The notes under the pieces were generated by a model. The model worked only from the letters and a program-made list of their open reading frames with translations. It made no database searches and was not told where the DNA came from. Positions 20,844-42,256 of a DNA stretch of 64,000 nt are shown one piece after another. The position numbers and the translations under genes are program-made. The number at the start of each line of letters is the position of its first letter. Position 1 is the first letter of the stretch. The DNA comes from Turneriella sp. Lineage in GTDB: Bacteria > Spirochaetota > Leptospiria > Turneriellales > Turneriellaceae. The stretch spans positions 1,728,001 to 1,792,000 of the forward strand of contig CBDIID010000003.1 in assembly GCA_965279515.1 (NCBI GenBank), written 5' to 3'.

Positions 20844-21917
20844 TTGCTTTTCTTAGGCAAAAACATCCAGGGGTCGGGTAAGGGTTCGAAAAAACTCCTT
20901 ACGCCGGCCCGCGTCATTCAGGAAACCAATAAGGCGATCGCCGAGATTCTGCGCGGGGATATCCCTAAGCGCACGGATGCGCCGGCAGGTCGCGGCCACG
21001 GAGGGCCTCGAAGCGACCTGAAAATCCTGCGCAAGATCGCTGCTTATGTCGTCGAGTCGGGGGGCAAACGCATCCGGCCGCTCTTCCTGTATTATTTAGG
21101 TAAGGCGCACCACCATGACGGTACAGAACTCATTCGCCTCGGTGCGCTGCTCGAGATCGTTCACGCAGCCAGCCTTTTGCACGATGACGTCATCGACCGC
21201 GCAGACGAGCGGCGCAGCCGGCCCACAGGAGCCAAGCTCTTCGGCAATAAAGAGGTCGTGCTGGGTGGCGATCATTTATTGTCTTCAGGGCTCAGGTATC
21301 TTAACGCGATGGGAAATCCCCGTTATATGGAAGTTTTCACCGACGCGATTCAGGCCCTGTCTGAGGCGGAGCTTTTGCAGATGCAGCACCACTTTGACCT
21401 CAAAACCGATCTGAAAATACATGCGCGCATCGTCGACGGCAAGACAGCGGTGCTGTTTCGGGCGGCCGGCGCCCTGGTAGCCCTCATGCAAAACGCTGAT
21501 GGGGATTATTACCGTTCTGAACCTGCCCTGTTAGGGGAACTTTTTGGTCGTTATTTTCAGCACCGCGACGACTACCTGGACTATTTCGACGCCGCCCGCC
21601 TGCGAAAAAAAGGCTTACAGGACTTCGCCAACGGCATCGTCACCCGCCCCCTCGCCTATCTGCTGAAGGCTGCAGAGCGGCACGAGACCACGCTGCTGCG
21701 TAAAGAGTGGGATTACTCCCGTGCCAACGGCCGGGTACGCGCAGAGGGTGAAATTCTGCAGCTGATGCAGAAACACCGGATCGAAGCAAAATGCCTTGAA
21801 CTTTTGTACGCCGACGAAAGCCAGATTTTGGCCGCCCTGACGGTCTTGCCGGCCAAAGAGCCCGGTGAGATCATCGCACGGGAGTTTCAAAAAATTCTTG
21901 CCGTGCGCGCTGCCTAA
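20844..21917 (+). CDS. Polyprenyl diphosphate synthase (IspB/HepT-like) with a 19-codon palindromic insertion
   Basis: GGKRIRP, ASLLHDDVID..ERR, GKTAVLF, FQHRDDYLD; start codon uncertain. Confidence 0.9.
   Translation: MLFLGKNIQGSGKGSKKLLTPARVIQETNKAIAEILRGDIPKRTDAPAGRGHGGPRSDLKILRKIAAYVVESGGKRIRPLFLYYLGKAHHHDGTELIRLGALLEIVHAASLLHDDVIDRADERRSRPTGAKLFGNKEVVLGGDHLLSSGLRYLNAMGNPRYMEVFTDAIQALSEAELLQMQHHFDLKTDLKIHARIVDGKTAVLFRAAGALVALMQNADGDYYRSEPALLGELFGRYFQHRDDYLDYFDAARLRKKGLQDFANGIVTRPLAYLLKAAERHETTLLRKEWDYSRANGRVRAEGEILQLMQKHRIEAKCLELLYADESQILAALTVLPAKEPGEIIAREFQKILAVRAA
20956..21020 (+). repeat. Intragenic nested-palindrome element, copy A
   Basis: GGGATATCCC; GCGC-ACGGAT-GCGC; CAGGTCGC-[GGCC-ACGGAG-GGCC]-TCGAA-GCGACCTG; encodes IPKRTDAPAGRGHGGPRSD. 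Confidence 0.75.
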
Positions 21918-21950
21918 ATTGCTGTAACTGAATTCTTCAAGGGGACTACT

Positions 21951-22457
21951 ATGAAAAAAATAGCATTAATACTGGCGCTGGTTTCTGCCGCGAGCCTCGC
22001 AGCCAAAGATAAGAAAGAGAATATCGCAGACCTCAAATCGGCTGACGACGCAGTGGCGATCAAAGCCGCTCAGGAACTCGGCGCTGACAGTGTCAAAGAC
22101 GCAATCGAGCCACTCGGCGAAGTCATCAAAAGCAACCGCTCTGCAGGCGTACGCATTGCCGCAGCTTCGGCGCTGGGCCGTATCGGCGAAAAAGGCCGTT
22201 CGACCACGATTCTCAAAGAATCGATCGAAGTGGGCCAGGATAACCACGTTGTTTATACTGAACTGCTCGCCCTCATGAACATCGCGGACCTTGAAAACCC
22301 CGACCTCACCAAGGCGGTAGAATTCTGCGAGAACAACAAAAAGTCAGATATCTACATCACCGACATACTGACGCGTATCCGTAAAAAATTCCCGCAGAAG
22401 AAAGAAGAGAAAAAAGAAGAAAAACCCGCCGACAAACCTGCGGACGCCCCGAAATAA
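21951..22457 (+). CDS. Exported HEAT-repeat protein
   Basis: Signal peptide; AIKAAQELG, VRIAAASALGRIG; SD AAGGGG. Confidence 0.8.
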   Translation: MKKIALILALVSAASLAAKDKKENIADLKSADDAVAIKAAQELGADSVKDAIEPLGEVIKSNRSAGVRIAAASALGRIGEKGRSTTILKESIEVGQDNHVVYTELLALMNIADLENPDLTKAVEFCENNKKSDIYITDILTRIRKKFPQKKEEKKEEKPADKPADAPK

Positions 22458-22460
22458 TTC

Positions 22461-23459
22461 GTGGTTGATTTGGAAAAATGGGGGAAGCTCTCGCTTCCCC
22501 TTTTTTTTTGCCTCGGCGTAACTTCAGCCACCCTCGCCGAAGACGGCCATGGTTGTCAGTTCTCTCTAAAAGCAGAAGTTCCGAAAAATATTAAGTTCAC
22601 AGTTCAATCGGGCCGCATTGCTTTTCTCTGCAAAGACGAGGCATTTTTCTTGCGAGGTACCGTCACGCGCACCCTACCCTGGCAACTAACCGGGAAAATT
22701 TTTGAAACAATGGCCGAACGCCTGAAGGCCGAAACGCTGGAGAAATGGCCGTCGGGGCGCCTCTACAAAATCAGTGCCGATAAAAAAAGCGATCAGAAGG
22801 CATTGATCTGCGGTTACCACACACGCGACCAGTATTCGATCGATCTTTGCTCCCCCGAGGTTGGCAACAGAAAGTCGCAGACTACAGAGCTGGTCGGTGG
22901 TATTCTGAAAGAATTCAAAACCGTCCCGCTCGACATGGCGCCGCTCCTTAAATCGGCGGCTCTCTTCGCCGAAAAAAAAGTTTTCACGGAAGAGAATGAA
23001 ACACGCGAGCCTGCCCTGCTCGCCCTGACCATGCCACCGGGTTATGTCGAAGTCACGCGCCGCGAAAACCGGGCGCTCTTTACCGACGCAGCCGGCCTTG
23101 CCGAAATGGAAATTTTCTACGAAATTTCTGAATTGCCGCTCGACTCCGATCTCGCGCACAAGGTGTACCGCAAATCGATTGCTGCTTTTCTCGCGAAACA
23201 GGGACCATGGCGCCCCGATAGGGAAGAGACGAACAAGGCCGGAGATACGACTTGCCTGCTTTTCACCGACAACGATAAACGCCTGAGCCATTATTGTTAC
23301 AGTGTTGCGCAAATCACGCAGGCCGGTAAAAAACGCTACTGCCGCATCGCCTTCGTTATCGCTTACCTGGGCGAAGCCGTTGACCGCACCCGCCTGCTTA
23401 CAGACCAGCAAGCGCTTATCAATAACTGGGCGAATATTCTTCGCAGGCATTCAAACTAG
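22461..23459 (+). CDS. Exported hypothetical protein
   Basis: 332 aa ORF with signal-like N-terminus filling the gap between co-directional genes. Confidence 0.6.
   Translation: MVDLEKWGKLSLPLFFCLGVTSATLAEDGHGCQFSLKAEVPKNIKFTVQSGRIAFLCKDEAFFLRGTVTRTLPWQLTGKIFETMAERLKAETLEKWPSGRLYKISADKKSDQKALICGYHTRDQYSIDLCSPEVGNRKSQTTELVGGILKEFKTVPLDMAPLLKSAALFAEKKVFTEENETREPALLALTMPPGYVEVTRRENRALFTDAAGLAEMEIFYEISELPLDSDLAHKVYRKSIAAFLAKQGPWRPDREETNKAGDTTCLLFTDNDKRLSHYCYSVAQITQAGKKRYCRIAFVIAYLGEAVDRTRLLTDQQALINNWANILRRHSN
22481..22509 (+). terminator. Intrinsic terminator after the HEAT gene, inside the 5' end of the next ORF
   Basis: GGGGAAGC-TCTC-GCTTCCCC followed by T9. Confidence 0.85.
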
Positions 23460-23460
23460 T

Positions 23461-24183
23461 TTGTCCGCTTTTTCAAAAAACGAAATCGAACGTTACAGCA
23501 GGCAGATCTTGCTGCGCGGCATCACAGCGCAGCAGAAACTCAAAGACACGCATGCCTTAGTAGTGGGCGCGGGCGGTCTGGGCTCTGCGATTCTGCCCCT
23601 GATTGCCGCCTCAGGCATCGGCAAAATCGAAATTTTTGACGCCGATAGAGTCGAGCAGAGTAATTTAGGCAGGCAGTGGATTTACCGCGAAGGTGATATC
23701 GGCAAAAACAAGGCGTCTGCGGCGGCAGCTTTTCTCCAGGCGCTGAATCCGCATATCGAGGTTATTGCCCGCGAACAAAAATTCGACGCCGCAGATGCCG
23801 GGTGCGTCGCCGCTGCGGATGTCATTTTTGAAGGCAGCGACAGCCTAAAGGCAAAATTCCTGCTGAACGACCTGGCAGTTGCACACAAAAAACCCGCTTT
23901 TATCGCCGCCCTCGGTGCCGCACAAGGCCATGCGATGCTCGTCGGCCGCAGCGCATGCTACCGCTGTGTGTTCGATGAAATGGATGATAACGAGCTGCCG
24001 AATTGTGCCACTGAGGGTATCCTCAGCACATTCCCTGCCGTCGTCGGCGCCAGCGTTGCACACGCGGCTGTCGAATACCTGCTTTCCGGAAGCAGCGAAA
24101 GCATATTCTGGGTATTTGAGAAAAATCATTGCCGCAAGGTGGCGGTCAGAAAAAGACACGACTGCAAAAACCACGCTTCATGA
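23461..24183 (+). CDS. HesA/MoeB/ThiF family adenylyltransferase
   Basis: ERYSRQI, VVGAGGLGS, D.D.VEQSNLGRQ, CYRC, CATEG; TTG start inferred. Confidence 0.92.
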   Translation: MSAFSKNEIERYSRQILLRGITAQQKLKDTHALVVGAGGLGSAILPLIAASGIGKIEIFDADRVEQSNLGRQWIYREGDIGKNKASAAAAFLQALNPHIEVIAREQKFDAADAGCVAAADVIFEGSDSLKAKFLLNDLAVAHKKPAFIAALGAAQGHAMLVGRSACYRCVFDEMDDNELPNCATEGILSTFPAVVGASVAHAAVEYLLSGSSESIFWVFEKNHCRKVAVRKRHDCKNHAS

Positions 24184-25076
24184 AACCGAAACACAAAAAA
24201 AGAAAAAAGCCGGTTGCAAAACGCAAGGCTGTGAAACCACGGCGGGGCACTTATGCGCTGGCGCTTTCGGGTGGTGCCGCGCTTGGCGCTTATCAGGCCG
24301 GGGCAATCCGCGCGTTTTTTGAAGCTGGTCTCAATATCCGTTCCGTGGCCGGCAGCTCTGTAGGCGCCCTGAACGGCTATTTAACCGCCACCGGTGAAAT
24401 CGACGAAATGCTGTCTTTCTGGCAGAACATCGACCAGAAGAAGCTCATCACCATCAACTCCTTCACGAAATTATTTTTTTCAGCCATGCCATCGCTGCTC
24501 ACGGACGAAATGCAGCGCCGACTCGTCGAAAAGCACGCCCGCGTCGAAAACCTCGTGCGCGCTAAACGCGAATTTATCTGTTCGGCGATCAGCATCAATA
24601 GCGGAAAATTATTTTTTTTCGAGGGTAATAAGGCGAAGAGTGACAAAGAGCTGCAGGATTACATTCTCGCCTCTGCAGCGGTTCCCGGCGTGTTTCCGCC
24701 GGTGCAGATCGGCCATGAACTCTTCATGGACGGGGGCCTGATACGCAATACGCCGATCGAAGCCCTGTACCGCAAGAACGTGGACGCCGTGATCGGCATC
24801 AGTATGGAGCCAGAGACATATCCCGAAGAGCCGCTGAAGAACACCGGCCAGATTGCGCTGCGCACGCTGAGCATTTTTTTCCGCGCGCAGGCATCCGACG
24901 CCGTCGACCGCGCGCTGCTTTCGCGCAGGCGCAAGGCAAAAAAAATCCTGCTGCTGCGCCCCCAATACCCTCTCGAGATGCAGCAATACGAATTCGATCC
25001 GAAAAAAATAGCCCTGTTGCTGAGCCAGGGTTATGCTGAAGCGCGCGAATTTATCCGCAAGAATAAACTGAGGTAA
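24180..25076 (+). CDS. Patatin-like phospholipase
   Basis: LSGGAALGAYQAG, GSSVG, ASAAVPGVFPPV, DGG. Confidence 0.93.
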   Translation: MKPKHKKRKKPVAKRKAVKPRRGTYALALSGGAALGAYQAGAIRAFFEAGLNIRSVAGSSVGALNGYLTATGEIDEMLSFWQNIDQKKLITINSFTKLFFSAMPSLLTDEMQRRLVEKHARVENLVRAKREFICSAISINSGKLFFFEGNKAKSDKELQDYILASAAVPGVFPPVQIGHELFMDGGLIRNTPIEALYRKNVDAVIGISMEPETYPEEPLKNTGQIALRTLSIFFRAQASDAVDRALLSRRRKAKKILLLRPQYPLEMQQYEFDPKKIALLLSQGYAEAREFIRKNKLR

Positions 25077-25077
25077 A

Positions 25078-26049
25078 ATGATCGACCTGCACCACCACTT
25101 CGACGGAGCCTTCGATATCGACGCCCTCTATGCCGAGGCTAAACGCCGCAATTTGCCGCAGGGCAAACTTTCTGCCGCAGAATTTCATGCAAAATGCCAG
25201 GTTCCGCAGGATTGCCGCACGCTCACGGAGTTTCTCGCCGTTTTTGATTTTTTTTACGATATCGCACAGGACATGGATTTCCTGCACACGGAAGCCAAAA
25301 AACTGCCGACGCGCATGGCAGATGCCGGGGTTATCTATCTTGAAACGCGCTTTGCCCCCCATCTTTTTACCGGTACGCATTATGCTGCAGCAGATATTGT
25401 GGAAAGTGTGGTTTCCGGGCTCGAAACAGGCAAAGGGACTCCGGTGCGGCTGATTCTCTGCGCCATGCGGAATGCGCCGATCGAACACGTGCAAGAGCTC
25501 ACCACCCTCTACCAGAAATTTGCCCAACGCGGCGTCTGCGGCATCGATCTGGCGGGCGATGAATCGCGCTATGCCTGCCGCGAGTATGCGCCGGTTTTTA
25601 AGCGTGCTCACGAAACCGGCATACCAATCACCATCCATGCGGGTGAGGCCTCGGGCCCGCAATCGGTCTATGACGCGCTGGATCTCTTCAAGGCACAGCG
25701 CATCGGGCATGGCATACAGTCGATCCAGGACGCGGCGCTGGTGCGGCGTCTCGCTGAAGAAAAGATCGGCCTTGAGGTATGCCTGACCAGCAACCTGCAG
25801 ACAGGTAATGCGCCCTCATACCAGGAGCATCCGTTTTTGCGCCTGAAAAATGCAGGCATACTCGTGACGCTCAACACCGACGACCCAACGGTTTCGGGCA
25901 TCGACCTTCAGCATGAATGGCAAAAGGCCATGGCAGAATATGGTTTTTCGCAGGCAGAAAAAAAAGCGCTGCTCAGAAACTCTGTTGACGTTGCTTTTTG
26001 CAGCGAAACCCTGAAGGAAAAATTACGCAAACAGATCGAAGCGGCTTGA
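25078..26049 (+). CDS. add: Adenosine deaminase
   Basis: DLHHHFDG, YLETRFAP, GIDLAGDE, IHAGE, RIGHG, NTDDP. Confidence 0.93.
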   Translation: MIDLHHHFDGAFDIDALYAEAKRRNLPQGKLSAAEFHAKCQVPQDCRTLTEFLAVFDFFYDIAQDMDFLHTEAKKLPTRMADAGVIYLETRFAPHLFTGTHYAAADIVESVVSGLETGKGTPVRLILCAMRNAPIEHVQELTTLYQKFAQRGVCGIDLAGDESRYACREYAPVFKRAHETGIPITIHAGEASGPQSVYDALDLFKAQRIGHGIQSIQDAALVRRLAEEKIGLEVCLTSNLQTGNAPSYQEHPFLRLKNAGILVTLNTDDPTVSGIDLQHEWQKAMAEYGFSQAEKKALLRNSVDVAFCSETLKEKLRKQIEAA

Positions 26050-26095
26050 CGGGGCCCGATCTTTGCCGGCTTAAGCTAATTACCGATAATCAACT

Positions 26096-26953
26096 ATGAA
26101 ATTCAGCGTAGCCACATGGAATTGTTTTGGTATGGGGCAGACCGTACTCGACGTCATCGCGCACCTTGCCCCCTTCCGTAAGCGTTATCTCAATCCGGAA
26201 CTTATCGAAGAGTGCGGCGATGCGAATGTTCTCTGTCTCCAGGAAATTTTATCAGGCGATTCGCAGCGGTTCTTCGATTCCCTGGTGAGAAAATATTTTC
26301 CATTCGCCATACGCGATAACAACAGATTCAAACTGATATCGTTGCGGGGCAGCGGCCTGGGTGTCGGTACCCGCATCAAACAATCGGTGGCAAAATTTCT
26401 TCCGTTTCAAAGCCGCGGCATCAGCTGGGACCGCTATGCACGCAAGGGTGCACTTTACACACAGCTCGAATTTGAAGGCCGAACCATCGACCTCATCACG
26501 GCGCATCTGCAGGCCGGCTATTCCGCCGAGTCGAGCCGGGTGCGCGCACAGCAGCTCAATGAGCTCAAAAACTGGGTAGCAGAGCTCGGCGCACCAGATC
26601 GGCACTTTATCGTCTGCGGTGATTTTAATATCCAGGGGCTCGCCGGGGCACGCGACGCGGGTGAGTACAAAACCCTGACCACGATGCTCGACGGCTTCAC
26701 CGACCTCGGTGCCGAAAGCGATCTCGCCACCTACCATCCGCATCCCGAGGGAAATCCGCTTGCGCATGCTTTTGAGAAAGAGACGACGGCGCAGCGCATC
26801 GACTATATCTTCGTACGCCCTGCTGTGCGGGCCGCAGAGATTGTCTGCTCAGGGTTCAAACGTTTTTTCGACAAACCCGTGGCAAGCCTCGGCCAGGGCA
26901 TCTCGAGCTGGGCCTCGGACCACTACGGCCTGAAGGCCACGTTCGAAATTTAG
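26096..26953 (+). CDS. Endonuclease/exonuclease/phosphatase family protein (sphingomyelinase-like)
   Basis: ATWN, LCLQE, GSGL, KGALY, AHLQA, GDFN, RIDYIF, SDHYG. Confidence 0.88.
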   Translation: MKFSVATWNCFGMGQTVLDVIAHLAPFRKRYLNPELIEECGDANVLCLQEILSGDSQRFFDSLVRKYFPFAIRDNNRFKLISLRGSGLGVGTRIKQSVAKFLPFQSRGISWDRYARKGALYTQLEFEGRTIDLITAHLQAGYSAESSRVRAQQLNELKNWVAELGAPDRHFIVCGDFNIQGLAGARDAGEYKTLTTMLDGFTDLGAESDLATYHPHPEGNPLAHAFEKETTAQRIDYIFVRPAVRAAEIVCSGFKRFFDKPVASLGQGISSWASDHYGLKATFEI

Positions 26954-26970
26954 CGGCGATCTACGGGGGA

Positions 26971-27543
26971 ATGACGCAAAAAACGCTGTGGTTCATCGCG
27001 ATCATTCCGCCCGATGACGTTGCGGAAAAAGTTCGCGCCATCCAACAGGAAATTGCCGGGCGCTTTGGCCCCCGCAGCAGTCTTAAGATTCCCGTTCATA
27101 TCACCCTCGAACCTCCCTTCCGTTTGCATGATGCCGAAGAGCCGCAGTTGGATATATTGCTGCGGAATTTTTTTGCAACGAAAGAAGAATTTTCACTCGA
27201 GCTCAGGAACTTCGGCTCTTTCAGGGAGAATGTCGTTTTTATCGAAGTGACGCCATCGCTGCCGCTTTTGGAAATGCACGATCAATTGTCCGAGCTGCTG
27301 CGCGGCCCTGCCGCCATTGTTAAGGCTGCCCCCTGGCATGGCGGATACACACCACACATGACCGTCGCGAACCGCGACGTCACTCCCGAAGCCCATGAAC
27401 GTATCTGGCGGGAATTTAACACGCGCAAATTTTATGCCGCCTTTCCGGTACAGGAGGTGGCGTTGTTGCGTCACCATCCTGAGGAAAAACTGTGGCAGGT
27501 ACACCGGCGTTTTTTACTGCTAAAACCGGCAACTGCTGAATAG
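26971..27543 (+). CDS. 2H phosphoesterase (2'-5' RNA ligase family)
   Basis: Two HxT motifs: VHITL and PHMTVA. Confidence 0.9.
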   Translation: MTQKTLWFIAIIPPDDVAEKVRAIQQEIAGRFGPRSSLKIPVHITLEPPFRLHDAEEPQLDILLRNFFATKEEFSLELRNFGSFRENVVFIEVTPSLPLLEMHDQLSELLRGPAAIVKAAPWHGGYTPHMTVANRDVTPEAHERIWREFNTRKFYAAFPVQEVALLRHHPEEKLWQVHRRFLLLKPATAE

Positions 27544-27601
27544 CCGCAACAGTAACCGGTAATTTCCGTTGACGCCCGGATTTCAACGGCGACAGAGCGG
27601 C

Positions 27602-27961
27602 ATGGCTCTCAATGTTCTCGGCACAGAGCTGCAATCGTGCAGCACCGAACCTCTCACGGGTTTTTTCCGCGACGGTTGCTGCAATACCAATGCCGAAGAC
27701 ACCGGCATGCACACGGTCTGCGTCGAGGTCACGGATGATTTCCTGGAATTCAGTAAATCTGTAGGCAACGATCTTTCTACCCCCGTGCCTCAATATGAAT
27801 TTTTTGGTCTCAGCGAAGGTGACCGCTGGTGCCTGTGTATGCCCCGCTGGATAGAAGCCTACAATGCGAACAGTGCCCCGCGCGTCGTGCTCGAAGCCAC
27901 ACATGTCTCGGTACTTGAACACATTGATCTTGACCTCTTAAGGCGCTTTGCCGTCGCATAA
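27602..27961 (+). CDS. DUF2237 family protein
   Basis: NVLG..L..CS..PLTGFFRDGCC, GNDLSTP, GDRWCLC. Confidence 0.9.
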   Translation: MALNVLGTELQSCSTEPLTGFFRDGCCNTNAEDTGMHTVCVEVTDDFLEFSKSVGNDLSTPVPQYEFFGLSEGDRWCLCMPRWIEAYNANSAPRVVLEATHVSVLEHIDLDLLRRFAVA

Positions 27962-27964
27962 ATT

Positions 27965-28753
27965 ATGAAATGGATTCTTTTTTTCCTAGCCGCGTCGGCT
28001 CTGAGTGCCGACGGCATTAACTATTTAAAACTGGGGAAAACGCACCGCCTGATCGGGCATAAAGTGCGCGTCCGGGCCGAGCCCGACGCCAAGGCAAAGA
28101 TTCTCGCCGAATTCTCTATTGGTTCCGAAGTCACTCCCGTAAAACAGACCGAGATCAAGATGACGCAGGACGGTGTCGAGGCCCCGTGGTATAAAGTGAC
28201 CTTCATGCGCGATGGCCAGAAAAAAGAGGGTTTTATCTGGGGCAACCTGATCGCAAAGGGTTTTGCAGAAGGCAAAGACGGGTTATTATTCCTCTACGGC
28301 ATCGGCCGCGGGGTTAAGTCCGATCCGACGTGGACAAACTATTCGTCGCAGGTGCGCGTCGCCAAAGACGGCACAGAACTCGCGCGACTCGAAATCAAAG
28401 AAGGTGTCGGTTTTATGTCAGGAGAAGAGATCGCGCTGCGCGACGGGACAGGATTCGACGGCGTCGGGAATATCTTCAGTATCCGCTTCATTCAGGAATA
28501 TTGCGGCGGCAAAGGCAATACGATCTTCGTTTTCTGGACCGGCAAAAAACTACTGTTCGTTCACAGCTCGATCGACGGCGCCGACGCTCCCGTTTATGCC
28601 ACAGAGAAACAGACTTTCCCCGGGGAAAAAGCGGGTAAGAAGAATCACCTCTACATTGAGCAGGAATGGGGTGACCATGATGATCCCAAGGCGACGAAAT
28701 TCGAAAAATTCTGGCTGAAGTGGACGGGAGAGAAACTGGAAAAAGTGCCCTGA
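27965..28753 (+). CDS. Exported bacterial SH3 domain protein
   Basis: Signal peptide; VRVRAEP...APWYKV...EGFIWG. Confidence 0.8.
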   Translation: MKWILFFLAASALSADGINYLKLGKTHRLIGHKVRVRAEPDAKAKILAEFSIGSEVTPVKQTEIKMTQDGVEAPWYKVTFMRDGQKKEGFIWGNLIAKGFAEGKDGLLFLYGIGRGVKSDPTWTNYSSQVRVAKDGTELARLEIKEGVGFMSGEEIALRDGTGFDGVGNIFSIRFIQEYCGGKGNTIFVFWTGKKLLFVHSSIDGADAPVYATEKQTFPGEKAGKKNHLYIEQEWGDHDDPKATKFEKFWLKWTGEKLEKVP

Positions 28754-28762
28754 GATTTTCCG

Positions 28763-29698: not shown

Positions 29699-29773
29699 TT
29701 GGGCAGATAGTAAAAGCCAAAAAAAAACAGATTTCGGGTAACAGAATTGAAGCGCCCGGTTGTTGCATAACAT

Positions 29774-30853: not shown

Positions 30854-30856
30854 GGT

Positions 30857-31363: not shown

Positions 31364-31408
31364 GGGCGTTTCTTCTGTTCGCGCTCTCTCTGTACACAAC
31401 TATGCCGC

Positions 31409-33238: not shown

Positions 33239-33239
33239 C

Positions 33240-34346: not shown

Positions 34347-34354
34347 TACAGATT

Positions 34355-35233
34355 TTAAACGGGGGAAATCCCCACTGCCCGCACCCCCAGTTCTGTGACG
34401 GCGAGAGTAAAGCTCAGGCCATCACCCTTACGCGGCTGCCATTCGGCCGGAATATTTTCACGGAAAAAAGGAATATAATCGTGCGGGCCTTTGGCTTCGA
34501 TCTGGCCGCGGCCGCTATTGCGGTTAAAGAACTTCACAGTGCCGCGGATGCTGCGGCCATCGAGTTGGTAATAAGCCAGAAGGGCCTCGAGGGTATGCGC
34601 CGAAGAGATTGCGGCGTTCAGCTTTTTCAGCAACTGGTCAAAATCCTGTAAATGTTTCGCATAGTCGGCCTGCGGAATCTGCCGGTAAAGGCGGCCATCC
34701 CAGTTTTGCAGGTGCACCAGGTTGCGGATCTCATTGCGGAAAGCATCGAGTTCGTCGGCGAGCGCGGCATCGACGATCTGCATTCCGCGCAGCTGCTGCG
34801 CATGCATCGCAAAGGTGCGCTTGCGGATCAGGTTCAGCAGGTTCTGGTGCCCGGCATGGGTCGACCCTTTCGAGCGGTCTGACGCATCGGAGACAACCAG
34901 CGGATCGGCAATGAGGGCAAAGACCACTGCCTCGATGATAATTCCCTGCGTGATCAGGAGCTGAAAGAACAGCGCGCTTTCGAGCGAATACTGCGGCTTG
35001 AAAAGTTTGTATTGCCAGAGCTGGTATTCAATCAGCTGCAGCATGTAGCAGATATTTGACTTAAACTCCGAATCTTTAAGATACTTGAAGTAGGTATCCC
35101 GGTAATAATCGATGGTCTTGAGCGTGCCCTTGGGTATCGCCAACGGAATCTGCGCGCCGAATTTTTCCGAAAACTCGACGAACTCACGGATGAGATGCTG
35201 TGCCCTGTATTGAGGAGTCGTTTGGCCTTCCAT
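34355..35233 (-). CDS. Hypothetical protein: helical HEPN-like domain plus C-terminal cold-shock-like domain
   Basis: LDAFRNEIRNLVH; C-terminal IRGTVKFFNRNSGRGQI...GDGLSFTL...GVRAVGI. Confidence 0.6.
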   Translation of the reverse strand: MEGQTTPQYRAQHLIREFVEFSEKFGAQIPLAIPKGTLKTIDYYRDTYFKYLKDSEFKSNICYMLQLIEYQLWQYKLFKPQYSLESALFFQLLITQGIIIEAVVFALIADPLVVSDASDRSKGSTHAGHQNLLNLIRKRTFAMHAQQLRGMQIVDAALADELDAFRNEIRNLVHLQNWDGRLYRQIPQADYAKHLQDFDQLLKKLNAAISSAHTLEALLAYYQLDGRSIRGTVKFFNRNSGRGQIEAKGPHDYIPFFRENIPAEWQPRKGDGLSFTLAVTELGVRAVGISPV

Positions 35234-35293
35234 TTTATTATGTCACTTGATATTTGCGAAGGGAACCGGGGGTATGCGCAGCGTCAATCCGGT

Positions 35294-36361
35294 TTATTTT
35301 TTCGGCCGGCGCCTTACACTGCCGGCGATCGGCGCCTTTTCCAGAATGGTAATCGCCTTCTTCTCGCCGCGGATCTCCACAAAAAGTTCTGTGCCTTTTG
35401 CGGCGGCATCAAAGCGCATCATACCCATGCCGTAATTTTTCGTAAAAGAAAAGGTTCCGGATGTGACCTCGCCGACCTTCGCGCCGCCGGCATTCACAAT
35501 GGGATATCCCTGGCGGGGCACACCTTCCGCGTTCAGCGAAAAACCATACGTCACCTGACCGATAGCTTTTTCCCGCAGCGCCTTCGGCGCGATGCAGTCG
35601 TGGTCAGCGTAGATAAAGGCAATGCCTGATTCCTGTGGCCTGAGCTCGGTGGAAAGCTCATGGCCGTAGAGCGGCATCAGTGCCTCGAGGCGCAAGACAT
35701 CGCGCGCCGCGAGGCCGCAGGGCATAACGCCCGCCGCCTGCAGGTCTTGCCAAAGCTTCACGCCCTCGGCCATCGGGCAGGCAATCTCAAAGCCGTCTTC
35801 CCCGGTATAACCCATGCGGCCGATGAAAGTTGTCTCCGCCGGCAGGCGCACTTCGTAATAATACATCTCATCGAGAAAGGAAAACTTCTTCGCAAGAAAT
35901 TCATGCGCCTTAGGTCCCTGTACGGCGATCAGGGTGTAATCCGCCCACGGAGAAACTTCGACCAGATCAGCAATGTGCTTTTTTAACAAAGCGACGTCGA
36001 CCTCGCGGTTGCCGGCATTCGCAACGATGAGCCAGTGCGTGTCGCTGATCGCCGAAACTGTAATATCATCGACGAGGCCTGCGTTTTCATTGTAGAGTGC
36101 ATTGTATTGCGCCTTACCGGCTTTCAGTTTGTCAGGAACACGCACGCAGATACGGCTGAGCGCCGTCACCAGGTCGTCGCGGCTTTTAGCCTTGAGCGAA
36201 ACCGGCAGCATGTGCGAAACATCGAACATGCCGCAGCGTTCGCGTACCGCGGTTACCTCGTCTTTGACCGCACCGTACGAAACCGGCATATTGTAACCGG
36301 CAAACGGTGTGAACTTTGCGTTCAGCTTCTTATGCTCGTCAAAGAGCGGCGTGGTATTCAT
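35294..36361 (-). CDS. gcvT: Glycine cleavage system aminomethyltransferase T
   Basis: FAGYNMPVSY, GMFDVSHM, GYTGEDGFEI, GLAARDVLRLEA..PLYGHEL. Confidence 0.96.
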   Translation of the reverse strand: MNTTPLFDEHKKLNAKFTPFAGYNMPVSYGAVKDEVTAVRERCGMFDVSHMLPVSLKAKSRDDLVTALSRICVRVPDKLKAGKAQYNALYNENAGLVDDITVSAISDTHWLIVANAGNREVDVALLKKHIADLVEVSPWADYTLIAVQGPKAHEFLAKKFSFLDEMYYYEVRLPAETTFIGRMGYTGEDGFEIACPMAEGVKLWQDLQAAGVMPCGLAARDVLRLEALMPLYGHELSTELRPQESGIAFIYADHDCIAPKALREKAIGQVTYGFSLNAEGVPRQGYPIVNAGGAKVGEVTSGTFSFTKNYGMGMMRFDAAAKGTELFVEIRGEKKAITILEKAPIAGSVRRRPKK

Positions 36362-36993
36362 GCAGTCGGCGTAATTTTATGAATCAGCTTTTCAATCCGC
36401 TTTTGTTGTGAAGCCTTGGGCAGCGATTTTAACCGACTTTTGAGTATCGCCTGAAATTCGACCATGGCCTTTTCATCGAGTACCGGGGCGCACATTTCCG
36501 CGTACATACCGAACTGGTTTGCCGGGCTGTTTTTCAGCCGGCTGAAAAGCGGCGGCAATGCCTGCGCCGCATGTTTCTTAATGCCGGCAAGTTTCACAAG
36601 AATTGCTGTGGCATGATCGTTGGTAATCACCGACCCCTGATTTGCCGCAGACAAAATCGTGCCGAGCTGTTCGGCAATGAGATCGGCATCAAAAGCGGCA
36701 ATCAAATCGAGGGCCTTCATCGCGCCCCACTGCAGGCGGTTATTATCGCTCGCCAAAAGCCCGGCGAAGAAACTGACCCTGCCCGCAATGAGTTCGGGCT
36801 TCAGTGCGGCTATTTCATAGAGCACTTTGATCGCGTCATTTTGAATGCCCGGCTTATCTGTCTCCACAAGGCGGATTAACTCCGCTACGGATTCTTTGTC
36901 GCCGGCCGCGGCAATTTTCTGTGCCAGGGCAATATTCGCGGCTTCACCTCGCTGCCCTTTCGAAGAAGACAATTGGTCTGTGATACTCATCAT
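36358..36993 (-). CDS. HEAT/ARM-repeat hypothetical protein
   Basis: Helical repeats (IQNDAIKVLYEI, NNRLQWGAMKAL, GSVIT); stop/start overlaps on both sides. Confidence 0.7.
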   Translation of the reverse strand: MMSITDQLSSSKGQRGEAANIALAQKIAAAGDKESVAELIRLVETDKPGIQNDAIKVLYEIAALKPELIAGRVSFFAGLLASDNNRLQWGAMKALDLIAAFDADLIAEQLGTILSAANQGSVITNDHATAILVKLAGIKKHAAQALPPLFSRLKNSPANQFGMYAEMCAPVLDEKAMVEFQAILKSRLKSLPKASQQKRIEKLIHKITPTA

Positions 36994-39233
36994 ACGCGCT
37001 TCAGCTCCGTAAATTTCAACAGGAATTTCCGCGTCTTGCCGTCGTCAAAAAAGATATGGATGCGCGCGGAATCGCCGTCACCCTCGACCTTGAGCACCCT
37101 GCCAGGGCCGAAATTCATATGTGTAACCTTATCGCCGCTCGAATAATTTTTGCCCGTACCCTGCGGTACAACCACACTGCCAAAATCCGGTTTTTTTGCG
37201 GTATCGGCAAAGGCGGCCCGGAAGGCGGGCTTCGGCCGTGAAGGCAGAATTGAAACGCGCGACGCAGACGGGGCGCCGCTAAAACCGTACGTTTTCTGTA
37301 TGCGGATCATTTCGCCGGGAATTTCATCGAGAAACGGCGAGGCCTTGGACGCCTCATAAAACCCCTGCGACATGCGGCGTTCAGCACGCGTGAAGAAGAG
37401 ATTGGTCTTCGCCCGCGTCACTGCCACATAAAAAAGCCGGCGCTCTTCGCTGATATCGCCATCGCGCTCGGACAAATAATGCGGAAAATAATTGCGTTCG
37501 AAGCCGGCGATAATGACAGTCTCAAACTCGAGCCCCTTCGCATTGTGCACGGTCATCAGGCTCACACTGGCGGTTTCAGCGTCTTCAGGGGCTGTGGTAG
37601 TAATCAGGGAAATCTGCTGCAAATAATCGCCGAGTGTCGCGTTTTCTGTCTGCCGCTGGTAGGCCAGCAGCGAATTTTTGAGTTCGGCGATATTCTCCAT
37701 GCGGCCGCTCGAAAGCAGCCGGTCTTCCTCTTCGTACAGCTTCTGCAAACCCGTGACATCCAGAAGCTCATCCAGGAAAAAACCCAGATCTGTTTTCGCC
37801 TCGGCTTTTTTCTTGAGCGCGGCGATGTCCCGGCCCAGCTTTTCAGAGGCGCCCAGGGCTTTGCCGGAAAGGGGATTCAGATCTGCGGCAGAGAGAAGTT
37901 CGACAAAGTCTGTCTGACCGCTCTCGGCACGAACGGCAAAAACTTTCTCTACGGATTTATCGCCGATGCCGCGCGGCGGCGTATTGATAATGCGGGCAAA
38001 CGCTGCTTCGTCGCGCCCGTTAACGATCAGGCGAAAGTAGGCAAGTACATCTTTGATCTCTTTGCGGGCGAAGAATGACATGCCGCCGTAAACGCGGTAA
38101 GGAATGCGCGCGTTGAGGCAGGCCTCTTCCAAAAGGCGTGATTGCGAGTTGGTACGGTAGAGTACCGCGATTTCGGAAAGCGAAGAATCCTTCGCTGCAT
38201 TCTGGATAATACTAATCACCTGCTGCGCTTCGGCGACATCGTCGGCGGTCGCAATCAGCACCGGTGTCAGGCCGCCTTCGCGCTCGGTGAAAAGCTTTTT
38301 CGGCATGCGCTCGAAATTGTTCTGTATGACCGCATTGGCAATCGCGAGAATCGGTTTCGTCGAGCGGTAGTTTTCTTCGAGTTTAATGACCACCGCGTCC
38401 TTGAAATCCACCGAAAAATCGAGAATATTCTTCACGTCGGCGCCGCGCCAGCCATAGATTGCCTGGTCGTCGTCGCCGACCACGCAGAGATTGCGGTCGC
38501 GCGAGGCGACGTGCTGCACGAAACGGTATTGTGCAAAATTGGTATCCTGGTACTCGTCGATGAGCCAGAACGGGTAACGGTTCTGCCAGCGCGTCAGCAG
38601 TTCGGGGTACTTGTCGAACAGGTGGCAGGGCAATGAAATCAGGTCCGCAAAATCCACAGCAAAGGAGGATTGTTTTTTGACCTCATAGAGCTGATACACT
38701 TCTTGCAGCATATCGCCGAACTCGTATTCGTCTAAATCAATTTCATCGGCGAGGTTCTGCGGCGTAACCAGCTTATCTTTAAAAGAAGAGATCGTATTCG
38801 CGAAATAACGGAACTGCGTCTTGTTGTATTTGCCGTCGAATTTTTCGAGAATCTGTGACAGCGCCTGCTGCTGATCGCCGTCATCCCAGATCGAAAAGTT
38901 TTCGGGATACTCGAGGTACTGGACATTGCGGCGCAGAAGATAGAGACCCAGCGAATGGAAGGTGCGCACGGTGCATTCGCTGCCAATGGGGCCCGCTGTA
39001 TTCAAAAGCCGCTCGCGCATCTCTCCCGCAGCTTTATTCGTGAATGTAACTGCGGCAAGATTATACGCCGGAACTTTTTCGACATGGATGAGGTAAGCCA
39101 TGCGGTGTATGATCGTGCGCGTCTTACCGGAACCTGCGCCCGCGAGAATAAGAAGCGGTCCGCGTGTTGTCTGCACCGCCTGCTGCTGCGGTGCATTCAG
39201 ATTTTTAAGTATTTCATTTTTCCAGTCAGACAT
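36990..39233 (-). CDS. pcrA: UvrD/PcrA ATP-dependent DNA helicase
   Basis: AGAGSGKT, TFTNKAA, DEYQDTN, VGDDDQAIYGWRGA, LEENYRS, HNAKGLEF, EERRLFYVAVTRA, C-terminal Tudor-like domain. Confidence 0.95.
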   Translation of the reverse strand: MSDWKNEILKNLNAPQQQAVQTTRGPLLILAGAGSGKTRTIIHRMAYLIHVEKVPAYNLAAVTFTNKAAGEMRERLLNTAGPIGSECTVRTFHSLGLYLLRRNVQYLEYPENFSIWDDGDQQQALSQILEKFDGKYNKTQFRYFANTISSFKDKLVTPQNLADEIDLDEYEFGDMLQEVYQLYEVKKQSSFAVDFADLISLPCHLFDKYPELLTRWQNRYPFWLIDEYQDTNFAQYRFVQHVASRDRNLCVVGDDDQAIYGWRGADVKNILDFSVDFKDAVVIKLEENYRSTKPILAIANAVIQNNFERMPKKLFTEREGGLTPVLIATADDVAEAQQVISIIQNAAKDSSLSEIAVLYRTNSQSRLLEEACLNARIPYRVYGGMSFFARKEIKDVLAYFRLIVNGRDEAAFARIINTPPRGIGDKSVEKVFAVRAESGQTDFVELLSAADLNPLSGKALGASEKLGRDIAALKKKAEAKTDLGFFLDELLDVTGLQKLYEEEDRLLSSGRMENIAELKNSLLAYQRQTENATLGDYLQQISLITTTAPEDAETASVSLMTVHNAKGLEFETVIIAGFERNYFPHYLSERDGDISEERRLFYVAVTRAKTNLFFTRAERRMSQGFYEASKASPFLDEIPGEMIRIQKTYGFSGAPSASRVSILPSRPKPAFRAAFADTAKKPDFGSVVVPQGTGKNYSSGDKVTHMNFGPGRVLKVEGDGDSARIHIFFDDGKTRKFLLKFTELKRV

Positions 39234-39237
39234 CGCG

Positions 39238-40107
39238 TTACATGCCAAGACCGGGAAAGCTGCGCTTCAGCAGAATATCGGCGTTGAGAAGCAGCATCAC
39301 AACGAGCATATAGATGATCGATGCGAAAAAAGCCCTGCCATACTGCTCTTTTCGGTAGATACCGCGCACAGTGCGGATGACGTAGTATACGGAAGCAATC
39401 CCACTGCCGATCAGGTACACCAGGCTATAGCCGGCCGATAAGCCCACGGCGAGAGCCAGCGGCGGCAAAGACAGACCGTAGATTAAAATATAAAGACGCG
39501 TGTAATCGTTACCGTAGACCAGCGGTAACACCGGCACACCGCCTTCGGCATAGTCGTGCTGAATTTTCAGCGTGAGCGCCCAGAAGTGCGCTGGCTGCCA
39601 CAGCATCATGAAGGCAAACAACAACCAGACGTCGGGAGCGAACCGGTCAGAGATACCATAAGAACCAATGAGCACCGGTAGCGCACCGGGCAGACCGCCG
39701 ACGATCGCACCAAAAGGGCCACGGCGTTTGAGGTATAATGTATACCAGACCGCGTAGGAAAGAATCGCCGCCATCGTGAATGCTGCGGCAAACCAACGCT
39801 GGTAAAAAACCAGCGGCGCAAATGACAACGCCGCCATGAAAAGAGCGATGCCCCAGAGCGTTTTTTTACCGAAACGATCGATGAGCTGGCTGCGCCACAG
39901 CGTCCGTTTCATGTTCTTGTCCATCGCATAGTCGAGCAGGTTGTTCATAATCGCCGAAGAACCTGATGACAGTGTGAGCGACCCCAGAATCCAGCAAAGT
40001 TCAGAGAGCGGCGGAAACCAGCGTTTCGCCATCAGCATGCCGGTAAAACCGGTCACGACGACGGTGAATATGATCGAACCTTTCGCGAGGCGTATTATGT
40101 CGCGCAT
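39238..40107 (-). CDS. cyoE: Protoheme IX farnesyltransferase
   Basis: NNLLDYAMDKNMKRT, YTLYLKRR, GGLPGALPVLIG, WQPAHFWAL, DYAEGGVPVLP. Confidence 0.93.
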   Translation of the reverse strand: MRDIIRLAKGSIIFTVVVTGFTGMLMAKRWFPPLSELCWILGSLTLSSGSSAIMNNLLDYAMDKNMKRTLWRSQLIDRFGKKTLWGIALFMAALSFAPLVFYQRWFAAAFTMAAILSYAVWYTLYLKRRGPFGAIVGGLPGALPVLIGSYGISDRFAPDVWLLFAFMMLWQPAHFWALTLKIQHDYAEGGVPVLPLVYGNDYTRLYILIYGLSLPPLALAVGLSAGYSLVYLIGSGIASVYYVIRTVRGIYRKEQYGRAFFASIIYMLVVMLLLNADILLKRSFPGLGM

Positions 40108-40152
40108 TATACCGAACGTATTAAGAAGCCAGACAGGGCGGAAACTGAAACT

Positions 40153-41061
40153 TTAGGCGGGAAGTTCGGACACAATCTTATTGCGCCCGGTGTTTTTTGC
40201 GTGGTATAGACGCTTATCGGCGAGTTCCACGAGGCGTTCTATAGGGTCAACGGGTGACATTTCAGAGAGCGACGCCACGCCGCCGCTAAACGTATACCGG
40301 ATCGCATGCCCGCCAGCCTCGCAGGCGGATTGCAACAGAGCCGTGCTGATACGGTTCAGGAAATCAATGCTTTTCGTAATCGTGCAGTCGAAGAACTGGA
40401 TGACGAATTCTTCGCCGCCAAAACGCGCGAGAATATCATATTTGCGGATCTGCCCCTTGATGGTCTGTGTAAAATGCTGCAGCACGGCATCGCCCGCCTC
40501 ATGCCCGTACTGGTCGTTGACATTCTTAAAGAAATCGATGTCTAATATCGCAACGCAGAGATTGCGGCGCATACGCATCGCGTAACTCAGATTCGACTGC
40601 ACGGCCTCAAAAAAGTAGCGGCGGTTGTAAGCCCCCGTGAGGTAATCTGTCACCGAGCGGATACGCAGCTCATACTCAAGGCTTTTCAGGCGCAATGCGG
40701 CCCGCATACGCGCCTTGAGCTCGCGCTGCATGACGGGTTTTGTCACATAGTCATGCCCGCCGACTTCAAAGCCCTTTTCGATATCCGTGGCGCTGTCGAG
40801 CGATGTGACAAATATGACGGGAATAACGCCATACTCTGAATTGCGTTTAATCTGCGAACAGAGTTCGAAACCGGAGATCTCTTTCTGCATCACGTCGAGC
40901 AAAATCAGGTCGGGCGGATGTTCGGCCATATGCGCCCAGAAATCGATCAGGTTTTTTGCGAGCGCAACTTCAAATTCGTTTTTCAGCAGGGCTTCGAGGT
41001 AGAGGCTTTCGACTTCAGAATCGTCAAGAATCAGAATACGCGGCAATCCCCCGTCAGCCAT
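40153..41061 (-). CDS. Response regulator diguanylate cyclase (REC-GGDEF)
   Basis: ILILDDS, LILLDV, DYVTKP; DYLTGAYNRR, I-site RKYD, RFGGEEF. Confidence 0.95.
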   Translation of the reverse strand: MADGGLPRILILDDSEVESLYLEALLKNEFEVALAKNLIDFWAHMAEHPPDLILLDVMQKEISGFELCSQIKRNSEYGVIPVIFVTSLDSATDIEKGFEVGGHDYVTKPVMQRELKARMRAALRLKSLEYELRIRSVTDYLTGAYNRRYFFEAVQSNLSYAMRMRRNLCVAILDIDFFKNVNDQYGHEAGDAVLQHFTQTIKGQIRKYDILARFGGEEFVIQFFDCTITKSIDFLNRISTALLQSACEAGGHAIRYTFSGGVASLSEMSPVDPIERLVELADKRLYHAKNTGRNKIVSELPA

Positions 41062-41137
41062 TGCAACCCCGCGCTACCATCAAGAATGTATGGTTGCAAA
41101 ACAGGCTGGAATGTAAATCGGTATTTTTCAAACAGCT

Positions 41138-42256
41138 TCACCACGTCATCACAGCCGCGCCGAATGTGAATCCCGCCCCATAAGCGGTCATCAGCACGCG
41201 GTTTCCCGGTTGCAATTGCCCGGACTCCAGTGCCATATGCAGCGAAACCGGCATCACGGCTGTCGAGAGTGAACCGTGCTGTGTGAGTACATCCGGGATT
41301 TTCTCTGCCGGAAAATTCAGATGTTCGGCAAGCTTGCGGATGACGTGCTTATTGGTCTGGTGCGGCAGAAAAACATCGATGTCTCCTTTGGCAAGGCTGG
41401 CATCATTCAGCACGGTATCGATTGCCTTCGGCACGTGGGTCAGCGAAAGTTTCATGATCGCGCGGCCATTCATCTTCGTATAATAGTCGGCGCGAAGAGG
41501 CACATCGTGTGCCCCGCCGACCCCGCGCTTTCCTGCGCCAGGACCACCAGTCCTGCGCTCCGTTTCGCCCGCAAGATAATACAGAGGAGAATTCAACGCA
41601 GCAGAGAACGGCGTCGCTAAGGATATGGCATCCGAATATTCGGCACCGATATGCGTCGCCAAAAGTCCCGGTTTTTCCGAGGGTGAGAGCACGACTGCCC
41701 CTGCTCCATCGCCAAACAGAACCGCATTTCTGTCGCCGCTCCGATGCACATCCTGGCCTGCCTGCGGCAGGGCAACGCCATCGTCGACCCCGCGCTTCCC
41801 TGCGCCGGGGTCACCCCTCCACAGGAAACCGGTCGAGAGTGCATCGCTGCCGATTACCAGGACAGAAATATTCTGCGACTCAACGACTGCCTTTGCCTGC
41901 GTCAGCGCATAGAGAAAGCCCGTACACCCCGCCTGCAAATCGTAACCGGGAATATGGCCCAGCTCAAGCCCCTGCGCGATGCGGCAAGCCGTCGCAGGGT
42001 AGAGCACATCGGGCGAATTGGTGGCGCAGATCACGAGGCGGATGTCCCCCCGCCCTGATTTTTGTACCGCTTCCCGGCCTGCCTCGATACCCATACCGGC
42101 AATCGTCTGTGCGGGATCGATCACCGAGCGCGTTTTGACGCCGATATTTTCCTGGATCCAGGCATCGCTGGTATCGATTATTTTTTCCAGTTCGGTATTC
42201 GACACATGCCGTTCGGGAATGTATTTTCCGACGCCGGTTATCCGCGCATAAGTCAT
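41138..42256 (-). CDS. Atypical 3-oxoacyl-ACP synthase III (FabH-like) with two palindromic in-frame insertions
   Basis: DTSDAWI, AGCTGF, LFGDGAGA, MNGR, PHQTN, YGAGFTFG; GNTS motif appears as GSLS. Confidence 0.88.
   Translation of the reverse strand: MTYARITGVGKYIPERHVSNTELEKIIDTSDAWIQENIGVKTRSVIDPAQTIAGMGIEAGREAVQKSGRGDIRLVICATNSPDVLYPATACRIAQGLELGHIPGYDLQAGCTGFLYALTQAKAVVESQNISVLVIGSDALSTGFLWRGDPGAGKRGVDDGVALPQAGQDVHRSGDRNAVLFGDGAGAVVLSPSEKPGLLATHIGAEYSDAISLATPFSAALNSPLYYLAGETERRTGGPGAGKRGVGGAHDVPLRADYYTKMNGRAIMKLSLTHVPKAIDTVLNDASLAKGDIDVFLPHQTNKHVIRKLAEHLNFPAEKIPDVLTQHGSLSTAVMPVSLHMALESGQLQPGNRVLMTAYGAGFTFGAAVMTW
41486..41558 (-). repeat. Intragenic nested-palindrome element, copy B
   Basis: Minus strand CAGGAC-TGGTG-GTCCTG; GCGC-AGGAAA-GCGC; GTCGGCG-[GG-GGCAC-ACGAT-GTGCC overlapping]-TCTTCG-CGCCGAC; 23/25 nt identical to copy C. 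Confidence 0.8.
41732..41818 (-). repeat. Intragenic nested-palindrome element, copy C (with nested CCTGCC-N3-GGCAGG hairpin)
   Basis: Minus strand GGGGT-G-ACCCC; GCGC-AGGGAA-GCGC; GTCG-A-CGATG...AGGAT-GTG-CATCG-GAGCGG-CGAC; interrupts the W-x-D-R-x-x-x-LFGDG motif. Confidence 0.85.

Follow-up and report, generated by a model that had tools for sequence, protein, structure and literature searches.

The window analysed here is a stretch of 64,000 nucleotides from the genome of a Turneriella sp. (the genome is called G000 in what follows, the window is G000:C3:1728001-1792000, and positions without prefix are counted from the first letter of the window). Two enzyme genes in it, one for a polyprenyl diphosphate synthase and one for a FabH-like beta-ketoacyl-ACP synthase III (KAS III), carry short inserts, one in the synthase gene and two in the FabH-like gene (Table 1). 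An earlier note on this DNA had pointed to three in-frame insertions, and all three were found, on the coding strand and a few bases from where the note had placed them; their limits are given here at codon level, from comparison with orthologues. We take the inserts to be copies of a family of twin-hairpin elements of about 57 nt, whose structure, distribution and probable mode of spread are the subject of this analysis.

Table 1. Host genes and inserts in the window
Feature	Positions	Strand	Description
Polyprenyl (octaprenyl-type) diphosphate synthase gene	20844..21917	+	357-aa open reading frame (ORF), host of one copy
Synthase insert	20958..21014	+	57 nt in frame, 19 codons, peptide DIPKRTDAPAGRGHGGPRS
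FabH-like beta-ketoacyl-ACP synthase III gene	41138..42256	-	372-aa ORF, host of two copies
FabH site 2 insert	41489..41545	-	57 nt in frame, residues 238-256, peptide GPGAGKRGVGGAHDVPLRA
FabH site 1 insert	41735..41812	-	78 nt in frame, residues 149-174, peptide DPGAGKRGVDDGVALPQAGQDVHRSG

The synthase protein aligns with octaprenyl and hexaprenyl diphosphate synthase chains (E about 1e-34), and its gene is present in 13/13 same-genus genomes. The FabH-like protein aligns with FabH chains of the Protein Data Bank (PDB) at an E-value of about 1e-52, in three stretches; since this alignment is broken at residues about 142-176 and 224-255, the protein contains two extra stretches. In an AlphaFold2 model built from 110 sequences, with a mean predicted local distance difference test (pLDDT) score of 86.5, values below 50 are found solely at residues 156-173, 217-219 and 237-256; the two inserts are the sole low-confidence stretches of more than three residues in a predicted fold that is otherwise confident. 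With the G000 gene as query, the FabH-like gene was matched in six of the 13 other same-genus genomes and had no second match in G000, so that KAS III content seems to be variable within the genus.

Structure and covariation of the 57-nt unit

The unit is about 57 nt long and consists of 4 to 5 linker bases, a small hairpin, about 3 bases and a larger hairpin. The small hairpin has a stem of 4 to 9 bp and the loop A-N-G-G-A-N; in the larger one, an outer stem of 8 to 10 bp is followed by an inner stem of 5 bp with a CA-NGGA-TG tip and, on the 3' side, a 5-nt TCTTY bulge. The two hairpins stand in direct orientation; there is no complementarity between the two ends of the unit. One structure was written for an alignment of 25 copies (A1): its first hairpin has 4 bp and a loop of six bases, and after a spacer come a 10-bp outer stem and a 5-bp inner stem, the latter closed by a four-base tip, with a 5-nt bulge on the 3' side. 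The conserved letters in A1 are those of the loops, A.GGA. and CA.GGATG, and of the bulge, TCTTY; in both loops, position 2 is unrestricted, and G or T stands at position 6 in most cases. A further short hairpin, which the earlier note had described 5' of a GCGC-N6-GCGC palindrome, draws on the gene sequence next to the insert and does not belong to what is conserved in the family.

The stems differ between copies while their pairing is kept. This had been claimed from the three window copies and is borne out in A1, where 86% of cells are paired, versus 28 to 50% when the partners are slid by 1 to 3 columns. Double-sided changes occur in 16 of the 19 pairs, with 102 such cells versus 15 to 27 in the slid controls, and none of 500 shuffles reached the observed pairing values. 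The inner stem of the copy in the Ham1 gene reads CGGCA/TGCCG in one same-genus genome (G012) and CGCCA/TGGCG in another (G002), and is still paired. Between dispersed copies, the mean pairwise identity is 0.60, and nearest neighbours lie at 0.64 to 0.79, except for tandem neighbours and one pair at 0.87. That the stems are still paired at such divergence, even within genes and between orthologous copies, points either to continuing selection on the fold or to replacement by new copies.

The three copies of the window alone would not prove a family, since their individual folds are weak (z-scores of -1.2, -3.7 and -1.1, two of the three being no better than shuffles) and since the exact core GCGCAGGRAAGCGC has just two occurrences in the genome, both in fabH. 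The first impression of 'no family' given by this exact-core search was overturned by a relaxed motif and by nhmmer: the relaxed pattern GCGCANGNANGCGC has 32 genome matches, about half of which, read by eye, are followed by the same larger hairpin, and an nhmmer profile of 15 copies finds 24 places at E<=1e-3. The core of the synthase copy, GCGCACGGATGCGC, has 8 occurrences in the genome.

A covariance model (CM), R1, matches the synthase insert at 20965-21025 (55.5 bits, E 3e-9); the limits of this copy according to the element's own fold may be 20967-21023. FabH site 2 is matched at 41481-41542 (41.2 bits) and FabH site 1 partially, at 41767-41809 (22.2 bits, E 0.18). The low score at site 1 is due to an extra 21 nt: we read this insert as a copy of 57 nt in which a further, palindromic 21 nt are nested, the extra part being without counterpart in the same-genus genome G003 and in database homologues. 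The two FabH inserts have in common a stretch of 22/22 nt at 95% and a longer one of 39 nt at 82%.

Distribution within the genus and within genes

A scan of the genome with the covariance model, which the earlier note had suggested, gave 90 matches in G000 at E<=1, of which 66 at E<1e-3; the count is a lower bound, as 150 of 1917 first-look candidates were scored. The lineage sample comprises 121 genomes of the class; the same-genus figures are based on 44 scored candidates for each genome. All 13 other Turneriella genomes were matched, with 18 to 40 matches each, and 3 of the 21 other genomes of the order had 1 to 3 weak matches. The largest sister family in the class, sampled with 86 genomes, gave no match and thus doubles as a negative control for the model. 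Among the genomes searched, the family is almost confined to its genus. In the literature searched on Turneriella with palindromic, repeat, MITE (miniature inverted-repeat transposable element), hairpin, CsrA or mobile-element themes, no description of it was found.

Tandem pairs and triplets are common, including within genes, with a period of 57 nt. Among the matches listed, the spacing within arrays is mostly 57 nt, with 59 nt in two arrays of G011 and 55 to 56 nt in one array of G000. A reading of the strands of the matches showed no obvious replichore bias. Some copies follow a tRNA gene directly (L039:303-363, minus strand; L044:305-429, plus strand; G000:C3:2702444-2702503), one of them filling a tRNA-tRNA spacer, and would therefore be co-transcribed with the tRNAs. 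A copy that is among the best scoring (70.6 bits) is found at the start of flgN (G000:C3:3202906-3202967, minus strand); it lies 4.6 kb upstream of csrA (G000:C3:3198123-3198278, minus strand), in the same flagellar region.

Forty-nine of the 90 matches in G000 lie wholly within predicted coding sequences (CDSs), 32 in sense and 17 in antisense orientation, and all frames are used; 21 overlap a gene end and 20 are intergenic. The description of the element as one that sits inside enzyme genes thus holds for the 49 copies within CDSs and not as an exclusive property, 41 of the 90 lying between genes or across gene ends. A Pfam scan of 40 host ORFs identified families in 33, and in 17 hosts, with 18 copies, Pfam-aligned residues flank the copy on either side. 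The 17 are AroA, TatD, RecG, RecF, Dxs, Ham1, RibD_C (two copies), a transketolase-like E1 beta subunit, an adenylate cyclase, a CysJ-like reductase, a ferredoxin reductase, Pyr_redox_2, a GMC oxidoreductase, two MBOAT proteins, DUF2339 and DUF2071. The remaining copies are located near protein ends, where predicted starts and stops are least reliable.

The peptides contributed by the copies depend on the frame (for example ..AHGGAGS..RMSSLP.., PGAGKRGV.. and PKRTDAP.. in sense, ..AKT.SVPA.. in antisense). Because they differ by frame, there is no protein-level motif under selection, and the 'G/P/R-rich loops' described earlier do not amount to one conserved motif: three sense frames as well as the antisense orientation are used. 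When each of the six frames is considered over the 83 full-length G000 matches, 81 to 94% of the in-gene copies are stop-free, versus 56 to 67% of the other copies. The stop-freedom of in-gene copies is raised in all six frames, although selection would be expected on the used frame alone. The orientation is biased: the ratio of sense to antisense copies in genes, 32:17 overall, is 16:3 at 45 bits or more, and the median CM score is 45.7 for sense versus 35.5 for antisense copies (p 0.04).

Empty and filled sites in relatives

Same-genus orthologues are empty at the positions of all three window inserts, as seen in the kind of orthologue alignment by which the earlier note had wanted empty sites to be confirmed. 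Of the 12 same-genus orthologues of the synthase, 10 have an empty site and read ..ILQG/DLRILKK.. (the slash marks the site); of the other two, G006 has 5 different residues, and the G001 contig starts within the site. FabH site 2 is empty in 6/6 same-genus genomic orthologues (..RRTG/DYYTKMNGR..) and in 26 of 27 database homologues, the remaining one (P0004) having its own independent 19-aa insert. FabH site 1 is empty in four of the six genomic orthologues, G003 having a 57-nt, 19-codon version and G006 a 27-nt stretch. Among 28 homologues, 18 have no insert at this site, one (G006) has the short stretch, six have one copy (G000 included) and three a tandem double; the 19-aa form is found in G003 and in four database homologues. 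Both sites are empty in the closest FabH homologue, which is 93% identical over shared columns. Of the groundwater contigs, which are short pieces from relatives, one spans FabH site 2 with exactly 57 fewer letters, and another carries the site-2 copy with three changes. Two contigs that contain the FabH stretch in full are near-identical and may come from the very source of this DNA.

The contig of the closest relative (L022, G001:C235:1-2425) begins at its position 1 inside the synthase insertion site (..SRPRS/DLKIL..). As it starts inside a copy, the repeats seem to break short-read assemblies.

Other host genes were compared in the same manner. The 57 nt in TatD are present in G000 only, 13/13 relatives being empty, including G001 at 92% protein identity, and RecG has 54 nt in G000 and is empty in four relatives. 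The sense copy in RibD_C is found in G000 only among the three genomes read, and a 60-nt copy in Pyr_redox_2 is shared by G000 and its sister G001, four others being empty. Two insert types occur in AroA: G000 and G008 share one, and G009, G010 and G012 have the other, which is placed four codons upstream of the first. In Ham1, where the copy is antisense, G000, G012 and G002 have one, G013 has a tandem of two and G011 one of three; five genomes have none, and short remnants are present in G001, G003 and G006. The presence/absence steps at orthologous sites thus measure 54 to 60 nt, mostly 57, and fall at the same codon in related species. On a four-protein tree, several of the fill patterns require either that the same codon was hit more than once or that copies were lost precisely. 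A different insert of 19 residues, MTPAGAEVRAGVETGKART, is found in RecG of G002 (L156), at the same codon (residue 491 of G000) at which G000 carries its copy of 54 nt.

A direct repeat of 3 to 5 nt (GAC/GAC, GAY/GAC, ACC/ACA, CGAC, CATGG, GAG(GG) or TAT) is present at the junctions of 7 of the 8 sites with a readable empty site, FabH site 2 having only 1 nt. Repeats of this kind would, in addition, make it easier for a copy to be deleted precisely or doubled by slippage. Across the genome, 42% of the copies have matching bases at an offset of about 57, a value with no background rate for comparison.

Two further ideas on the junctions were rejected. A Gly-Asp target rule (GGN/GAY) agrees with the empty window sites and with AroA, which are all G-D, and fails at TatD, RecG, RibD_C, Pyr_redox_2 and Ham1; where G-D is found, it may come from a terminal GAC of the element or from turn-rich loops. 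Templating of the stems from the target was suggested by the synthase and RibD_C junctions and is absent at TatD and Ham1. The 5' end of the sense copy in RibD_C (L067:319-381, plus strand), GCATGGGTCAAGGATGACCC, is similar to CCATGGGTCAATGAC, the native sequence at the empty site in G008 (comparison with L148 and L150). Chance or microhomology may account for this, or else a hairpin formed on the target's own sequence.

Origin and possible role of the family

We consider it likely, with a probability of about three in four, that the three inserts belong to a family of twin-hairpin units of about 57 nt, lying in frame in genes, which has spread as non-autonomous mobile DNA moved in trans by some enzyme. 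The copies are dispersed and restricted to the genus, they come and go in clean presence/absence steps, and they have junction repeats. The central proposal of the earlier note, that of a non-autonomous repeat which is conserved in structure, restricted to a lineage and a source of added peptides in proteins, is accordingly supported by the covariation, the 90 matches, the distribution (13/13 versus 0/86 genomes) and the empty sites. As to mechanism, the element would pass through a folded single strand when it is copied or moved, and would be recognised through its shape and its loops; integration would produce a short duplication of 3 to 5 nt. Its persistence in genes would be explained by a length of 57 nt, that is 19 codons, and by most copies being stop-free, and precise loss or doubling would occur by slippage between the short flanking repeats.

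Several points weigh against such mobility. The term 'mobile' is based on comparing species that are themselves far apart, and nothing points to recent bursts, as no dispersed copies are near-identical to each other. Sixty-two copies, read together with their flanks, show no terminal inverted repeats. A mobiliser was not found, and no transposase adjoins the three-copy array that was examined (C3:4813332-4813507). The junction repeats are short and variable, down to the single nucleotide of FabH site 2. The same few sites (FabH sites 1 and 2, the AroA loop, Ham1, RecG) turn up filled repeatedly, which also fits old insertions followed by precise losses, or local processes. The gene calls come from a simple codon-usage gene finder, such that copies near gene ends may be misfiled. 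Finally, the sense bias and the higher scores of sense copies hint at some selection at the RNA level.

Repeats in frame inside essential genes are rare, and the Rickettsia palindromic elements (RPEs) are the standard case. As summarised in the review PMC10969869 (after Ogata et al. 2000, 2002), RPEs are palindromic and lie in frame in unrelated metabolic and housekeeping genes of one genus, where they are unusually frequent. The Turneriella copies resemble them in adding, in frame, peptides that are tolerated by the hosts to many unrelated genes. However, RPEs are about 100-150 bp long and have a conserved peptide per family, whereas here the unit has 57 nt and is used in six frames. Moreover, the Turneriella family is defined by covarying stems and conserved loops and not by sequence, which sets it apart from the RPE description, and its copies form tandem arrays inside genes. 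ERIC/RU elements also include small repeats within genes with open frames; according to PMC2759123, they are MITE-like units of 103-168 bp with terminal inverted repeats and are mainly intergenic, whereas the Turneriella unit is one of 19 codons without terminal inverted repeats.

What is added to this picture is a free-living spirochaete genus with a much smaller (19-codon), fold-defined unit in AroA, RecG, RecF, Dxs, TatD, FabH and further core enzymes, which is found in both orientations and doubles or triples in place. The copies provide a natural map of the enzyme positions that tolerate disordered inserts of 19 to 57 residues. The family is a clean system in which to follow long-term stem pairing inside coding DNA, and a defined substrate for seeking a hairpin-recognising mobilisation enzyme or CsrA binding. 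For annotation, the copies are of concern in that they inflate protein lengths and can break assemblies.

Alternatively, the unit may be chiefly an RNA module, whose CA-NGGA-TG loops would be bound by CsrA or by some other RNA-binding protein; copies would then wire transcripts to CsrA or titrate it, and mobility would account for their spread only. GGA is nearly invariant in both loops, which we take to be similar to the CsrA consensus from SELEX (systematic evolution of ligands by exponential enrichment), and csrA is present in G000. The excess of sense copies, most pronounced at high scores, and their better kept fold are in line with this view, as are the arrays, in which 2 to 3 units give 4 to 6 GGA hairpins, and the copies behind tRNA genes, which would be co-transcribed. 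However, 17 of the 49 intragenic copies are antisense, so that their mRNA would show ATCCNT loops, and about 8 of the 20 intergenic copies, read by eye, are antisense to both neighbours, including a three-copy array near C3:4131221. In addition, csrA was looked at in G000 alone, and nothing ties the narrow spread of the element to CsrA. We therefore think it unlikely that the family is in the first place an RNA module.

The TwoAYGGAY RNA motif (RF01731), reportedly described by Weinberg in 2010, is among the known systems closest to the unit: both have two hairpins, loops of the type A-Y/N-G-G-A-Y/N, tens to hundreds of copies, a strongly variable copy number and a mobile-like spread. In a preprint (10.64898/2026.09.22.753630), the AYGGAY loops are proposed as Csr/Rsm sites, 1,693 of 16,086 copies are placed in CDSs, and both hairpins are said to rise from a common basal stem. 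In the Turneriella unit, by contrast, hairpin 1 sits 5' of the outer stem of hairpin 2 and outside it; the unit is also much shorter, with 57 nt against 168 positions of the TwoAYGGAY model, and comes from a different phylum. Membership of TwoAYGGAY was considered and rejected: the best genome match of that model, on one family copy, has 24.4 bits (E 0.43) against a threshold of 43, a faint likeness, and in 17 copy loci the model has no match at E<=1. Rfam as a whole gave nothing at gathering thresholds in the window or in three array regions, and at E<=1 only tRNAs and chance matches in the 17 copy loci.

Mobility and regulation could also be combined. The 57-nt unit might be a transposable regulatory site, a mobile pair of CsrA-type GGA hairpins, each landing of which would place a transcript under CsrA control; this we regard as similarly unlikely. 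If so, in-frame landings and landings behind tRNA genes would alike bring new transcripts under CsrA, tandem arrays would be CsrB-like sponges, and the 19-codon, stop-free design would let a regulatory RNA element colonise coding DNA. We know of no CsrB-like sponge RNA in the Turneriella lineage.

To return to spread as non-autonomous mobile DNA, the earlier note had thought of a mobiliser of the RAYT/HUH type acting in trans. In a narrower form, the family would be a REP/REPIN-type or IS200/IS605-derived element moved by the Y1 (HUH) transposase of the genome. IS200/IS605 ends are imperfect hairpins in direct orientation on one strand, with a bulge, and the Turneriella unit likewise has two imperfect hairpins in direct orientation on one strand, one of them with a bulge. 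Moreover, a single-copy Y1_Tnp gene is present in G000 (G000:C3:2616152-2616472), and Y1_Tnp is found in 11 of the 13 same-genus genomes, the two without it being 82-83% complete. However, the G000 gene is bracketed by two near-identical long palindromes of its own, with the core GGGAATTAATTCCC (G000:C3:2616100-2616560), which are unlike the element and occur nowhere else in the genome, and the nearest CM match is about 10 kb away. The locus is a solitary IS200-like unit or else a RAYT that lacks a REP family, and the earlier proposal of this mobiliser finds no support in it. Y1_Tnp is also found in genera where the element was not found (g7, g12 and g15, for example). Insertion of IS200/IS605 is not known to make direct repeats, which disagrees with the short direct repeats at 7/8 junctions.

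The comparison with REPs leads in the same direction. REPs carry a tag at their 5' end and cluster around the RAYT gene. According to PMC3733652, they are 20-40 bp long and mostly extragenic, and most of them belong to two superfamilies with a GTAG or CGTC end tag. With REPs and REPINs, the Turneriella family shares short, G+C-rich imperfect palindromes, high copy number, a non-autonomous nature and dependence on structure. It differs in that neither GTAG nor CGTC occurs as a tag in the consensus or in the invariant A1 columns, in that more than half of the matches are intragenic, and in the unrelated hairpins of the Y1 gene. Taken together, we find movement by this transposase quite improbable.

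That there is no mobile family at all, the flexible loops being indel hot spots in which palindromes were made locally by template switching or slippage and came to resemble each other by convergence, is hardly credible: the hairpins at the three window sites do use flanking gene sequence in part, the same loops were hit repeatedly across species, FabH site 1 gained its nested 21-nt palindrome and the RibD_C copy has a native-like 5' end, but this view is largely refuted by the covariation, by the genome scan, with the same loops, bulge and 57-nt unit at 90 unrelated places that include intergenic DNA and tRNA spacers, and by the lineage spread, with matches in 13/13 genomes of one genus and 0/86 of the sister family.

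One other repeat was noticed in G000. A larger repeat that holds the hairpin GCCTGCCGAAGGCAGGC is present in seven near-identical copies (1 to 2 letters differ per 80 nt), at G000:C3:99060, 137958, 144336, 157887, 3741750, 3750186 and 3766206; these may be part of an insertion sequence or of a repeated gene.

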